64,000 bases of DNA, from NCBI RefSeq assembly GCF_045037415.1, contig NZ_CP173438.1. One strand, 5' to 3'. This DNA is from Escherichia coli (GTDB lineage Bacteria > Pseudomonadota > Gammaproteobacteria > Enterobacterales > Enterobacteriaceae). A program made the position numbers and the translations under genes. Below the pieces are notes generated by a model. The model did not search any database. It worked only from the letters and a program-made list of their open reading frames with translations, and was not told where the DNA came from. This document shows positions 235-18,008 of this stretch, piece after piece; position 1 is the first letter of the stretch, and every line of letters begins with the position of its first letter.

Positions 235-792
235 CTATTCCAGATTGGCGTGGCGCTTAAACAGTTCACTTTCCGGCGCACCACTTTCAGCAGCCATCTT
301 CATCACTAATGCATCGGCAATCACCAGCAAAGCTTGCTCATACAACGACGCCATCGGCTGTGCCGAGCGGAAAACAGAATCTTTTTGATTTTTGGAAGGG
401 GCATTGATTTGCACGATGACGTCGACAAACTCGGTGATAGTGGCGTGTCGATTCGTGGTTAACACCGCCACAGCGCCGCCGAGCTGACGTGCTTTTTTCG
501 CCAGCGCCACCAGTTGTGCTGTCTCACCGGAAGCAGAAGAAACGATAAACAGATCGCCAGGCCCAAAGTTCGGCGTAATGGTTTCCGTCAGGAAGTAAAC
601 CTCTTTTCCCATATGCATCAGGCGCATGGTGAAGGCTTTCATAGAAAAACCGGCGCGTCCCAGGCCATAGCAGAAAACGCGCTGGCTTTGCTGAATAGTG
701 TCGATCAATTTGGTGCAGTCATCCTCACGGATAGAGTCCTTAACGAAGGTTAATTCATTGATGATCTCAGTGATGTACAGCTTTGCGTCCAT
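235..792 (-). CDS. SIS-domain sugar-phosphate isomerase (HxlB/Phi-like, about 185 aa)
   Basis: ORF 235..804 on the track. I prefer the ATG at 792 because GAGGTG sits 5 nt upstream. Size and the SSASGET/LTTN-type motifs fit single-SIS isomerases. Lies 41 bp upstream of the PTS EIIC start, same strand. Confidence 0.6.
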   Translation of the reverse strand: MDAKLYITEIINELTFVKDSIREDDCTKLIDTIQQSQRVFCYGLGRAGFSMKAFTMRLMHMGKEVYFLTETITPNFGPGDLFIVSSASGETAQLVALAKKARQLGGAVAVLTTNRHATITEFVDVIVQINAPSKNQKDSVFRSAQPMASLYEQALLVIADALVMKMAAESGAPESELFKRHANLE

Positions 793-1087
793 TTCACACC
801 TCATGAAATAATTTTCTCAAACACAAAATCTCATGAAATTTTATTTCATTCCAATGCATCAGTATGAAATGTGAAGCTAGTCACAAGAAAGATCATAGGT
901 TGATATGTTTTTCATTAAAAAACATAGAGATATCAAGTAATTTTTAATATGTGATGGAGAGGCAGATAGAAAAAATGGCGGAAATGACGAAATTTATTTC
1001 ATGAGAAGGGAATAAAGAAGATTTTCTTAAACAGGGTATGAACTGATATCTGGAATGGTTTACGCAGTATGCTGGGAAGACGTCGCT

Positions 1088-1123
1088 GTAATGAGAAAAG
1101 ACCGGGTGGTATTACCACCCGGT
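1088..1123 (-). terminator. Rho-independent terminator downstream of metE
   Basis: Hairpin ACCGGGTGG-TATTA-CCACCCGGT at 1101-1123, followed on the minus strand by CTTTTCTCATT. Confidence 0.6.
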
Positions 1124-1130
1124 TTGGATT

Positions 1131-3392
1131 TTACCCCCGACGCAAATTCTGCGCCGCCTGCACCATGTTCGCCAGTGCCGCGCGGGTTTCTGGCCAGCCG
1201 CGCGTTTTCAGGCCACAGTCCGGGTTGACCCACAGACGCTCTGCCGGAATGCGTTTTGCCGCTTTCTTCAGCAAGGCTTCAATCCATTCCACGCTCGGTA
1301 CGTTTGGCGAGTGAATGTCATAGACGCCAGGACCGATTTCATTTGGATAATCAAACTCTTCAAACGACTCCAGCAACTCCATGTCGGAACGCGAGGTTTC
1401 GATGGTGATGACGTCTGCGTCCAACGCCGCAATCGAATCCATAATGTCGTTGAACTCGCAGTAACACATGTGAGTGTGGATTTGTGTGTCATCTTTCGCC
1501 ACGGCGGCGTTGATACGGAAAGCCTCCACGCCCCACTGGAGATAGGCATCCCAGTCGCTGCGACGCAGTGGTAAACCTTCGCGCAATGCCGGTTCGTCAA
1601 TCTGAATGATGCCAATTCCAGCGGCTTCCAGATCGGCCACTTCATCACGCAGTGCCAGCGCAATCTGTTTGGCGATGGTTTCACGGCTGACATCTTCACG
1701 CGGGAACGACCAGCAGAGAATAGTCACCGGGCCAGTCAACATCCCTTTCACCGGTTTATCAGTCAGGGATTGCGCATATTTTGCCCACTCCACGGTAATC
1801 GGTGCCGGGCGGCTAACGTCACCAATAACAATCGGTGGCTTCACGCAGCGGGAACCGTAGCTCTGTACCCAACCGTTTTGCGTAAAGACAAAGCCATCCA
1901 GATGCTCGCCAAAGTATTCCACCATGTCATTACGCTCGGCCTCGCCATGTACCAGCACATCCAGTCCCAAACGTTCCTGCTCAACAATGGCCTGCTTGAT
2001 ATGTTCCGCAATGCCCGTGCGGTAGTTATTGGCGTCGATATTACCCTTTTTAAAATCCAGACGCAGGGTACGAATCTCCGTGGTTTGCGGGAAGGAACCA
2101 ATCGTGGTGGTCGGCCACGCGGGCAGTTTAAAACGCGCACGCTGGGCTTCAGCACGCACTTCATAGACATTCGCACGCTGACTGTCCTGGGCGGTGATCG
2201 CCGCCAGACGCTTTTCTACTGCCGGATTATGTACACGAGTAGAGTGACGACGCGCCTGAATCGGAGCGCTCCACTCTGCCAGAGCTGCCGTATCACCACT
2301 GTTCAGCGCATCGCGCAGCAATGCCAGTTCATGACATTTTTGCAAGGCGAAGGCAAACCAGCTTTTCACTTCTGCATCAAGACGCGTTTCCACGCTCAGG
2401 TCGATGGGGCTGTGCAGCAGTGAGCAGGAAGATGCCACCCACAAATCACGTTTGCCGACAATGTCCTTAATTTGCGCATATTTCTCGGTAAGATCGGCGC
2501 GCCAGACGTTACGACCATTGATAAGACCCGCAGACAGCAGCCAGTCAGAAGGCAGGCGCTTGTGCAGTTCAGCAACGTCATCTTTACCATGTACAAGATC
2601 GACATGCAGACCCTGAACAGGCAGCGCAGTAATCGTGTCGAGGTTTGGCGTTACGCCTTCAAAATAGGTGGTCAGCAGCAGTTTCACCTGGCCCTGGAGC
2701 GCGTCGTAAGCGGGTTTGTATGCATCCAGCCACGCCTGCGGCAGTTCCAGCACTAGCGCGGGTTCGTCGATCTGTACCCACTCAATGCCGCGTTTCGCTA
2801 GTTCTGCCAGCACTTGCTGATAAACCGGCAGAATGTCGTTCAGCAGGCTCAGGCGATCAAACTGTTCACCTTTCACTTTACCCAGCCACAGGTAGGTAAC
2901 CGGCCCCAGCAGCACAGGTTTCACCTTGTGGCCCAGCGCCAGCGCCTCGTCCACTTCCTCCAGCAGCTGCGTCCAGGTCAGTTTGAACTGTTGGCCTTTA
3001 ACGAACTCCGGCACCATGTAGTGATAGTTGGTGTTAAACCATTTGGTCATTTCCGCTGCCGCCGCAGGTTCGCCAGTCGGTGCACGTCCACGACCAATAC
3101 GGAACAGGGTATCGATATCTACCGAACCATCGTTGTTCTGATGACGTTGCGGAACATTACCCAGCAGCAGACTGGTTGTCAGTACATGATCGTACCAGGC
3201 AAAATCGCCCACCGGCAGCAGGTCGATACCCGCTTGCTTTTGTTGATCCCAGTGACGAGCACGCAATTCACGCCCTACCGCCAGCAGTTCTTCACGCGTG
3301 GAGTTCCCCGCCCAATAACTCTCTTGCGCTTTTTTCAGCTCGCGACGCAGGCCAACGCGAGGGAAACCGAGGGTGTGATTAAGAATTGTCAT
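1131..3392 (-). CDS. metE: Cobalamin-independent methionine synthase
   Basis: 753-aa ORF; N-terminus [29 protein letters not shown] and overall length match E. coli MetE. Confidence 0.97.
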
Positions 3393-7266: not shown

Positions 7267-7887
7267 ATGACCTTAGAATGGTGGTTTGCCTACCTGCTGA
7301 CATCGATCATTTTAAGCCTGTCGCCAGGCTCTGGCGCAATCAACACCATGACCACCTCGCTCAACCACGGTTATCGCGGCGCGGTGGCGTCTATTGCTGG
7401 GCTTCAGACCGGACTGGCGATTCATATTGTGCTGGTTGGCGTGGGGTTGGGGACGCTATTTTCCCGCTCAGTGATTGCGTTTGAAGTGTTGAAGTGGGCA
7501 GGCGCAGCTTACTTGATTTGGCTTGGGATCCAGCAGTGGCGCGCCGCTGGCGCAATTGATCTTAAATCGCTGGCCTCTACTCAATCGCGTCGACATTTGT
7601 TCCAGCGCGCAGTTTTTGTCAATCTCACCAATCCCAAAAGTATTGTGTTTCTGGCGGCGCTATTTCCGCAATTCATCATGCCGCAACAGCCGCAGCTGAT
7701 GCAGTATATCGTGCTCGGCGTCACCACTATTGTGGTCGATATTATTGTGATGATCGGTTACGCCACCCTTGCTCAACGGATTGCTCTATGGATTAAAGGA
7801 CCAAAGCAGATGAAGGCGCTGAATAAGATTTTCGGCTCGTTATTTATGCTGGTGGGAGCGCTGTTAGCATCGGCGAGGCATGCTTAA
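7267..7887 (+). CDS. rhtB: LysE/RhtB-family homoserine/homoserine-lactone exporter
   Basis: 206-aa membrane ORF; N-terminus [27 protein letters not shown] typical of the RhtB family; next to pldB. Confidence 0.9.
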
Positions 7888-8045: not shown

Positions 8046-8906
8046 ATGACGGAAGCAACGACACCACATGACGCAATCTTTAAGGCTTTTTTATCCCGAC
8101 CAGAAACGGCCCGTGACTTTATTGAAATTCATCTGCCGCCTTCTTTAGTTAAACTCTGCAATCTTGATACGCTCCATCTCGAGTCCAGCAGTTTTGTAGA
8201 GGAAAACCTACGCCAGTATTACAACGACGTACTTTATTCAGTAGAGACGACGAAAGGGTGCGGATATATCTATGTGTTGATTGAGCATCAAAGTTCACCT
8301 GATGAAAATATGGCGTTCCGTATGCTTCGCTATGCTATTGCCACCATGCAGCGGCATCTTGAAGCGGGACATGATTATCTGCCTCTGGTGATCCCCATTC
8401 TTTTTTACCAGGGAAAGCGTAGCCCATATCCATGGTCAACAAACTGGCTCGATGGTTTTCCGGATCCGGACATTGCACGCGATCTCTATTTTCATGCTTT
8501 TCCGCTGGTTGATATTACGCTAATTCCTGATGACGAAATCATGCAACACCGCAGCATGGCCGCCTTTACGCTGGTACAGAAGCATATCCGTCAACGGGAT
8601 ATGACAACGCTGTTAGATAAGTTATCCCGCTTAATGATTCTGGGGCAGATGAGCGGACAGCAAATACGCATGTTGATAAACTACATGGCGCTGGTAGGTG
8701 AAGCACAGGATGTACGAACATTAGTACATGGTCTGGCACAACGAGTGCCTCAACAAGGAGAGGAACTGATGACTTTAGCGGAAGAACTTCGGCGCGATGC
8801 CCTTCTCAATGTCGCAAAAGCCATGCTACAGCGTGGCTTTGATTTGCAGTTGATTATGGAAATGACCGGGCTTTCTCAGGAAGACCTTTATCAATTGCAA
8901 TCCTGA
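8046..8906 (+). CDS. Rpn/YhgA-like PD-(D/E)XK recombination-promoting nuclease family protein
   Basis: 286-aa ORF; N-terminal pattern TPHDAIFKAFL..ETARDFIEIHLP...LHLESSSFVEE...YNDVLYSV...YVLIEHQSS is what I recognise from E. coli RpnA-E (Transposase_31 family). Recalled, not searched. Confidence 0.75.
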   Translation: MTEATTPHDAIFKAFLSRPETARDFIEIHLPPSLVKLCNLDTLHLESSSFVEENLRQYYNDVLYSVETTKGCGYIYVLIEHQSSPDENMAFRMLRYAIATMQRHLEAGHDYLPLVIPILFYQGKRSPYPWSTNWLDGFPDPDIARDLYFHAFPLVDITLIPDDEIMQHRSMAAFTLVQKHIRQRDMTTLLDKLSRLMILGQMSGQQIRMLINYMALVGEAQDVRTLVHGLAQRVPQQGEELMTLAEELRRDALLNVAKAMLQRGFDLQLIMEMTGLSQEDLYQLQS

Positions 8907-17023: not shown

Positions 17024-17105
17024 ACATTGTACACTCGAGGAGGCCAGACAAACTGGGGCTGGCTACACAGCTGGAAAATCATCAGATAAATGAAGGGAAA
17101 CAAAA

Positions 17106-18008
17106 ATGAAAAAAACGCTCGCAACATTATTTTTATTAACCTGTCTGGGGTCATCATCCGCTTATGCGGATAACGCTTTGATTTTACAAACGGATTTTAG
17201 CCTGAAAGATGGTGCCGTCTCGGCGATGAAAGGGGTCGCATTCGGTGTTGACCATAATCTTAAAATCTTTGATTTAACACACGAAATTCCACCGTATAAC
17301 ATCTGGGAAGGCGCTTATCGCCTGTATCAGACTGCCAGTTACTGGCCGCAAGGTTCGGTGTTTGTTAGCGTGGTCGATCCAGGTGTTGGTACAGACCGTA
17401 AATCGGTAGTGCTGAAAACCAAAAACGGTCAGTACTTCGTTTCACCAGATAACGGTACGCTCACGTTGGTGGCGGAATCGCTGGGTATTGAGAGCGTCCG
17501 GCAAATCGATGAAAAAACCAACCGTCTGAAAGGTTCCGAAAAGTCATATACCTTCCATGGTCGTGATGTATATGCCTACACCGGTGCGCGTCTGGCTTCC
17601 GGGGCGATCACGTTCGAGCAGGTGGGGCCAGAGCTTCCTGCAAAAGTTGTCGAACTTTCTTATCAGAAAGCCAAAGCAACAAAAGGTGAAGTGAAGGGCA
17701 ATATCCCGATTCTCGATATTCAGTACGGCAACGTCTGGAGCAATATCAGCGACGAGTTGCTGAATCAGGCAGGAATCAAACTCAACGACACGTTGTGTGT
17801 GACCATTTCCGAAGGTTCCCAGCAAAAATACGCAGGGAAAATGCCGTATGTCGCAAGCTTCGGCGATGTGCCGGAAGGCCAGCCGATGGTGTATCTGAAC
17901 AGCTTATTGAATGTTTCCGTGGCGCTGAATATGGATAATTTCGCGCAGAAACATCAGGTTGCGTCTGGTGCTGACTGGAATATTGATGTGAAGAAGTGCG
18001 CTAAGTAA
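17106..18008 (+). CDS. DUF62 / SAM hydroxide adenosyltransferase-like protein with N-terminal signal peptide
   Basis: 300-aa ORF; MKKTLATLFLLTCLGSSSAYA signal peptide (AXA site); then LQTDFSLKDGAVSAMKGV...DLTHEIPPY...VVDPGVGT...VSPDNGTLTL, the conserved N-domain pattern of DUF62. Starts 82 bp after yigE with a GAAGGGAAA RBS. Confidence 0.7.
   Translation: MKKTLATLFLLTCLGSSSAYADNALILQTDFSLKDGAVSAMKGVAFGVDHNLKIFDLTHEIPPYNIWEGAYRLYQTASYWPQGSVFVSVVDPGVGTDRKSVVLKTKNGQYFVSPDNGTLTLVAESLGIESVRQIDEKTNRLKGSEKSYTFHGRDVYAYTGARLASGAITFEQVGPELPAKVVELSYQKAKATKGEVKGNIPILDIQYGNVWSNISDELLNQAGIKLNDTLCVTISEGSQQKYAGKMPYVASFGDVPEGQPMVYLNSLLNVSVALNMDNFAQKHQVASGADWNIDVKKCAK

Follow-up and report, generated by a model that had tools for sequence, protein, structure and literature searches.

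Which regulator controls the horizontally acquired PTS operon in the tkt1 genomic island of extraintestinal pathogenic Escherichia coli (ExPEC), and through which sites? The island lies between metE and ysgA and is enriched in B2-group extraintestinal pathogenic strains (PMC3349570). In chickens a tkt1 mutant is out-competed (PMC3349570). Regulation of the island is not addressed in its description (PMC3349570). The DNA analysed here, referred to as the window, is a stretch of 64,000 nucleotides (64 kb) of E. coli contig NZ_CP173438.1, and its sequence is 100% identical to that of ST131-like strains such as SK1144. The operon is read from the minus strand in the order hxlB, a ptsG-like gene for a glucose-family PTS IIBC, and tkt1; the latter two genes fall outside the window, to its left. 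The product of the first gene scores 205 bits against NCBIfam model TIGR03127, for which the cutoff is 160. K-12 homology resumes at 1047, so positions 793-1046 are island DNA and constitute the upstream region of the operon. The right edge of the island falls at approximately 1046-1050.

The borders carry possible traces of the insertion. The approximately 14-kb tkt1 island is flanked by a 21-nt direct repeat of the ysgA 3' end (TGGAATGGTTTACRCAGTATG, 95% identical), found at 1051-1071 of the window and at 7269-7289 of locus L019. At the far edge ysgA is intact with a 3' end supplied by the island, and the original 3' end has been left beside metE. Integration or recombination may have left this repeat as a scar. 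Elsewhere in the window, between rhtB and rhtC, lies a gene for an Rpn-family recombination-promoting nuclease or putative transposase (approximately 8046-8906; 17046-17906 of locus L001).

Table 1. Features in and around the upstream region of the operon. Positions are those of the window unless another locus is named.
Feature	Position	Strand	Basis or remark
hxlB-like SIS gene (6-phospho-3-hexuloisomerase), operon gene 1	235..792	-	ORF; RefSeq annotation of the identical SK1144 sequence
Shine-Dalgarno GAGG, 6 nt ahead of ATG 792-790, within copy 1 of the initial annotation	799..802	-	read from sequence
Candidate operator P (proximal), 14-bp dyad AGAAA-ATTA-TTTCA (gene strand), then TGAGG; abuts Shine-Dalgarno GAGG	804..817	-	matrix; conservation
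Candidate operator D (distal), perfect 15-bp palindrome TGAAAT-TTT-ATTTCA	834..848	.	zero mismatches to palindrome; conserved position
CRP (cAMP receptor protein) box TGTGA-agctag-TCACA, perfect core	870..885	.	10/10 core positions, read from sequence
AT-only palindrome TATGTTTTT-CATTA-AAAAACATA, probably not functional	904..926	.	inverted-repeat arms
Candidate operator U (upstream, inverted), 14-bp dyad CGAAA-TTTA-TTTCA, then TGAGA	988..1001	+	matrix; conservation in L010
E. coli backbone: ysgA 3'-end relic, then metE terminator hairpin (1101-1123)	1047..1130	.	K-12 homology from 1047
metE	1131-3392	-	upstream of hxlB, same strand
Alternative island right end	L002 6115-8377, replaces window 893-1134		without U, ysgA relic and metE terminator region
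MurR/RpiR-family regulator WP_001060029.1	~3.4 kb beyond the window's left end	convergent with operon 3' end	RefSeq name

Dyads P, D and U and the CRP box

The initial annotation described three copies of a short AT-rich motif upstream of the SIS and PTS genes, and these are real. With at most two mismatches, TCTCATGAAATWWWTT matches at 799-814 (+), 829-844 (+) and 991-1006 (-), the last being the inverted copy that had been placed at 985-1003. One more match occurs in the 64-kb window, where 0.17 matches are expected in total. The exact 9-mer TCATGAAAT starts at 801, 831 and 996 (reverse complement): three occurrences in 254 nt, set against two in the other 63.7 kb. In dinucleotide shuffles of 793-1046 (29.5% GC), however, some 9-mer reaches at least three copies in 90 of 5000 cases (1.8%), so the repetition alone is moderately significant and the argument is carried by comparative data.

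Closer inspection resolves the repeats into three dyads with the half-site TGAAAT/ATTTCA, here named P, D and U (table 1). The first of the copies originally described corresponds to P, the second to the right arm and flank of D, and the third to U. On the gene strand the region reads cTTGTGActagctTCACA-tttcatactgatgcattggaa-TGAAATAAAATTTCA-TGAGATTTTGTGTTT-GAGAAAATTATTTCA-TGAGGtgtgaaATG. Scoring matrices were made from non-E. coli sites only and scanned over the 64-kb window. The 15-bp matrix ranks D first (20.4; next best 12.9), and the 14-bp matrix ranks U first (19.0) and P second (15.7; next 12.5). The three E. coli sites thus head the lists, a result in favour of the rarity elsewhere that the initial annotation had set as a check. 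The half-sites of D are separated by N3, and the spacers of P and U are 1 bp shorter. Sites of 15 and 14 bp are unusual for one dimeric protein, though HexR gives a precedent: its sites have the form TTGT-N7-8-ACAA (PMC5489143), so that a 1-bp difference in spacer is tolerated.

Matches outside promoters were also recorded. A near-perfect dyad, TGAAATAATATTTCT, with a score of 23.5, lies at 8576-8590 of locus L007 within an unrelated MCP-signal gene. It was the one chance strong match in a scan covering the 64-kb window plus some 148 kb of loci, which implies that single strong matches arise by chance roughly once per 150-200 kb. Dyad-like sequences also occur within tkt of two Klebsiella-like loci, GGAAATTATATTTCC at 9873-9887 of L012 and GGTAATTATATTTCC at 10374-10388 of L004. 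These share the same codon position, 1203 nt into the gene, are not found in E. coli, and probably reflect coding conservation rather than an operator.

Two further elements had been listed alongside the repeats. What had been taken for a weaker copy, at 861-870, flanks a perfect CRP box and is not an operator of this type; a CRP box belongs to the region as well. The separate palindrome does exist, with perfect 9-nt arms, but is not of the P/D/U type, and it is not conserved: L010, the closest orthologue, keeps a single arm, and the tssD-type E. coli variant described below lacks the palindrome altogether.

The predicted CRP box sits between U and D, its centre 36.5 bp from that of D. U and D are 153.5 bp apart, a spacing that does not obviously correspond to an integral number of helical turns. 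A strict scan for a sigma-70 consensus over 700-1200 returned no promoter. Candidate -10 and -35 elements were instead placed by hexamer score averaged across orthologous promoters. The best conserved -10-like hexamer falls inside D (TAAAAT, 843-838 on the gene strand; TAATAT, TATTAT and similar in orthologues), and a weak -35, TTCAxx, directly follows the CRP box. The distance from the CRP centre to this hexamer, 34.5 bp, would put CRP near -46.5, which is neither canonical class I nor class II. The distance from the CRP centre to the start of D is 29.5 bp, and a class II fit is obtained only if the weak hexamer xGAAAT serves as the -10.

RefSeq sets the hxlB start codon at 792-790, not at the ATG of a longer ORF at 804. 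Shine-Dalgarno spacing fits a start at 792, and a purine-rich AGG or GGAGG occupies the Shine-Dalgarno position in all orthologues. Some gene callers choose the in-frame ATG at 802-804, 12 nt upstream of the RefSeq start, which yields a 189-aa ORF (P0001, P0003). The ATG at 804 is out of frame in L004 and hence is probably not the real start of hxlB.

Orthologous promoters

A contig scan supplied two relatives, and further orthologues were found by protein search and contig look-up. Seven promoters were compared with that of the window: an APEC-O1-type E. coli variant, L010, L004, L012 (Klebsiella pneumoniae), L008/L015, L011 and L006/L014 (Serratia ficaria). The hxlB products of these seven are 71-98% identical to the window protein. 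All eight promoters share one layout. A CRP-like box is followed by 20-21 nt usually ending in TGGAA, then by WGAAAT-N3-ATTTCA at the position of D, 15 nt, a second dyad and the ribosome-binding site. The intervening spacers are divergent. The half-site motif wTTATTTCATGAg stands at -50/-51 and again at -20/-21 from the ATG in each of the eight, and at the latter position, that of P, the site is of the ATTTCATGAGG type throughout. The CRP-like box is 21 nt upstream of D in seven promoters and 20 nt in Serratia L006, and each of the seven other promoters retains at least 8 of the 10 core positions. This nearly fixed distance between CRP box and D argues for a promoter at D, in which case U, upstream of the box, would not be transcribed. 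The initial annotation had named conservation in orthologous loci as a check on its motif; the outcome is favourable, with dyads at fixed positions in all eight promoters. At L007 and L009 tkt-hxlB occurs in another context, and no motif was found at hxlB.

Conservation of U is more variable. It lies within a 24-nt block that is 100% identical in L010, where the flanking DNA is heavily diverged. Weaker inverted counterparts, mutually alignable, are present at -182 to -187 in L004, L012 and L011. L006, L008 and the tssD-type E. coli variant lack U. Since it is missing from the former two and from approximately 460 E. coli genomes, U is dispensable.

One of these records is peculiar. L004 (CACSKA010000003.1) is labelled 'Chryseobacterium sp. 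18061' and carries hxlB-ptsG-tkt-rpiR in the same gene order as K. pneumoniae L012 and with similar sequence; its products are about 80% identical to those of E. coli. Mislabelling or contamination of this record is possible.

The co-inherited regulator and competing explanations

A gene for a MurR/RpiR-family regulator travels with the operon. Orthologues occur in all five loci that have enough flanking sequence, and this is the only regulator common to the five. In E. coli, L004 and L012 the gene lies after tkt in convergent orientation, and it follows tkt in L015 despite an inserted second PTS cluster. In Serratia it is approximately 6.5 kb away, after a MOFRL gene, where gene order in Klebsiella had led us to expect it and where it was then found. 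The L012, L014 and L015 orthologues have the family architecture of an N-terminal HTH_6 domain (PF01418) and a C-terminal SIS domain (PF01380). Identity to the E. coli protein is 79, 78 and 67% in L004, L012 and L014, and tracks the identity of HxlB. The helix-turn-helix segment SEATIVR(T/A)CKK is invariant among the orthologues compared. Against NCBIfam, the best matches are RpiR-family models, all below cutoff (for HexR, 107 bits against 296). The protein falls under the HexR, MurR and AlsR cutoffs and is thus assigned to an uncharacterised subfamily. Outside E. coli (L014, L012, L015) rpiR stands last in, or beside, a conserved cluster encoding a GFO_IDH oxidoreductase, an AP_endonuc_2 isomerase, an alpha/beta hydrolase and a DUF4147/MOFRL glycerate-kinase-like protein. 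This setting hints that the ancestral catabolic locus was larger and that the E. coli island has kept no more than a portion of it.

We infer from this co-inheritance that the RpiR-family protein is the likely binder. It is possible, though unlikely, that the sites are operators of some other factor, such as an SgrR-like regulator or a chromosomal regulator shared by Enterobacterales (ROK-family or another sugar regulator). Serratia (L006/L014) and L011 do have an SgrR-like gene immediately ahead of hxlB, and the same motif is found there, whereas the upstream region of rpiR lacks the motif. The SgrR-like gene is absent from the E. coli island, however, and no such dyad was found in the sgrR-sgrS region of K-12. 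The Serratia intergenic region that separates the SgrR-like gene from the GFO_IDH-family operon carries a different repeat, a long-range inverted GCGGAAA...TTTCCGC (L014 7950-8000), which may be the SgrR-like regulator's own site. RpiR is the sole regulator shared by the well-covered loci, and the 6-N3-6 geometry agrees with its family.

A more doubtful account dispenses with a dedicated regulator. The conserved blocks would be signals of the core promoter and of translation (a -10 within D, a spacer rich in A and T, the Shine-Dalgarno context ATTTCATGAGG), and duplication would have made them alike. The best -10-like hexamer is indeed within D, P abuts the Shine-Dalgarno sequence, and the region is AT-rich (GC content as given above). 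Against this, the left half-sites (xGAAAT), without a role as promoter elements, are kept as dyad partners in 8/8 promoters. The inverted copy U lies upstream of the CRP box and is perfectly conserved in L010. In addition, one 19-mer, ACGAAATTTATTTCATGAG, serves as U in E. coli and as P in L004.

Control at the RNA level is the least probable alternative. A long leader starting upstream of U would let U (UCUCAUGAAAU...) pair with P or D and hide the ribosome-binding site. The arms 793-816 and 989-1012 show 83% complementarity across 24 nt, U is base-paired to P in the minimum-free-energy fold of 780-1015 (z = -1.95), and the U:D duplex of L004 reaches -29 kcal/mol with two pairing-preserving changes relative to E. 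coli. Any inverted DNA repeat is, however, complementary as RNA by construction. Folding and duplex energies are marginal and the partners inconsistent, the preferred partner of U switching between D and P among orthologues; D and P moreover persist in promoters without U. The CRP box, downstream of U and 20-21 nt from D in 8/8 promoters, points to a promoter at D, and in L010 U begins 5 nt past the metE terminator, leaving no room for a promoter. A permissive Rfam scan of 600-1300 gave nothing below E = 0.27, the weak matches being to spurious miRNA families, and the short 5' UTR of a transcript from approximately 835 is not significantly structured (z = -0.75).

The proposal of the initial annotation, an array of operators under a dedicated regulator, accords with the fixed positions in eight promoters, the rarity of the sites in the window and the co-travelling RpiR-family gene; what has changed is the unit, a TGAAAT/ATTTCA dyad in place of a 17-mer.

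A proposed switch and its alleles

The arrangement is read here, with moderate confidence and on sequence evidence, as a switch in which an RpiR-family regulator released by a phosphosugar represses from P, D and U, CRP activates, and U is an auxiliary operator. The proposed mechanism has four parts. (i) When inducer is absent, the regulator would occupy D, at the predicted -10 and start region, and P, between the transcription start and the ribosome-binding site, so that RNA polymerase is blocked. Because D would cover the -10 and start and P the early transcribed region, the arrangement is that of a repressor, and repression rather than activation is the expected mode. (ii) U, approximately 153 bp upstream, would add cooperative binding. 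A DNA loop between U and D, enclosing the CRP site, is conjectured. (iii) A sugar phosphate, whether a product of the PTS transporter or a substrate of HxlB, would bind the SIS domain of the regulator and cause its release. (iv) Transcription would also require cAMP-CRP at its box, which would place the operon under catabolite control. The operator set is previously undescribed for this operon and is of a conventional type.

Close parallels are found among RpiR-family regulators. RccR recognizes 15-bp TGTAGT-N3-ACTACA sites, sometimes two per promoter, and both RccR and HexR are released from DNA by a phosphosugar (PMC5489143). Like these Pseudomonas proteins, the candidate described here has HTH_6 and SIS domains, with several putative sites in one promoter. 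RccR sites and D are each 15-bp 6-N3-6 pseudo-palindromes with an A/T linker (TGTAGT-TTT-ACTACT for RccR, TGAAAT-TTT-ATTTCA for D). The half-site differs, being TGAAAT here rather than TGTAGT or TTGT, and the proposed target is a PTS operon gained by horizontal transfer rather than central metabolism.

MurR represses murQP, which encodes a SIS enzyme and a PTS-IIBC, via adjacent repeats; a sugar phosphate releases it, and it is autoregulated (PMC9177960). The resemblance lies in an RpiR-family repressor and an operon in which a SIS-domain enzyme precedes a glucose-family PTS IIBC. The gene murR is, however, divergent from its target and autoregulated, whereas the regulator gene here is convergent and distant, with no upstream site. 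In no locus was a dyad found ahead of rpiR, isolated ATGAAAT half-sites being all that occurs there, so autoregulation of the MurR type is not seen here. A site in front of the regulator gene, reported for MurR and RccR, is not obligatory. MurR was considered as a direct homologue and rejected: identity is 24%, and the murR-murQ intergenic region is without a GAAAT/ATTTC dyad. On comparison, the PTS protein was likewise ruled out as MurP-like. Jaeger and Mayer are said to have described murQP as CRP-dependent in 2008.

For the wider geometry, NagC (nagE-nagB) and GalR (gal) provide the models. Each represses through a DNA loop between a promoter operator and a second operator approximately 100-150 bp away, with a CRP site between the two. 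The order of D, CRP box and U is similar. The regulators belong to other families, looping is conjecture in the present case, and U is dispensable in several orthologues.

Variation within the species offers a natural set of alleles. The promoter is present in 1134 of 5426 complete E. coli genomes, and 672 of these have the U form. In approximately 460 genomes (NU14, APEC O1-like) the DNA beyond 892 is replaced by a tssD (Hcp) pseudogene segment and two small hypothetical genes. U is shared by L010, which makes the U-less E. coli form the derived one. Only three changes are found in the approximately 110-bp promoter of the U-less lineage, and these, small in number, are nested and all fall in P or D. 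(i) An A is added to the spacer of P (NU14). (ii) G is changed to T in the CATG of P (HS13-1). (iii) At the same motif position in D, G is changed to A (APEC E16002). The pattern suggests relaxed constraint or selected weakening of repression.

A bolder extension, which we consider rather improbable, is that a repression loop is built from P, D, U and the CRP box and that U-less ExPEC (ST95/APEC-O1-like) have weakened P and D stepwise, derepressing the virulence-associated tkt1 operon. If true, the lineage would provide a natural operator-decay series linking regulatory evolution of the island to pathotype.

The proposed system is a standard catabolic switch of repressor plus CRP, and its value is accordingly local rather than general. 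Now that the operator motif is defined and a candidate repressor and CRP box are located, the timing of operon expression is reducible to simple experiments, for which the natural promoter alleles, those with U and those without it that carry the nested changes in P and D, are ready-made operator mutants. The candidate repressor is also a handle on the inducer: it may reveal which sugar phosphate effects its release.
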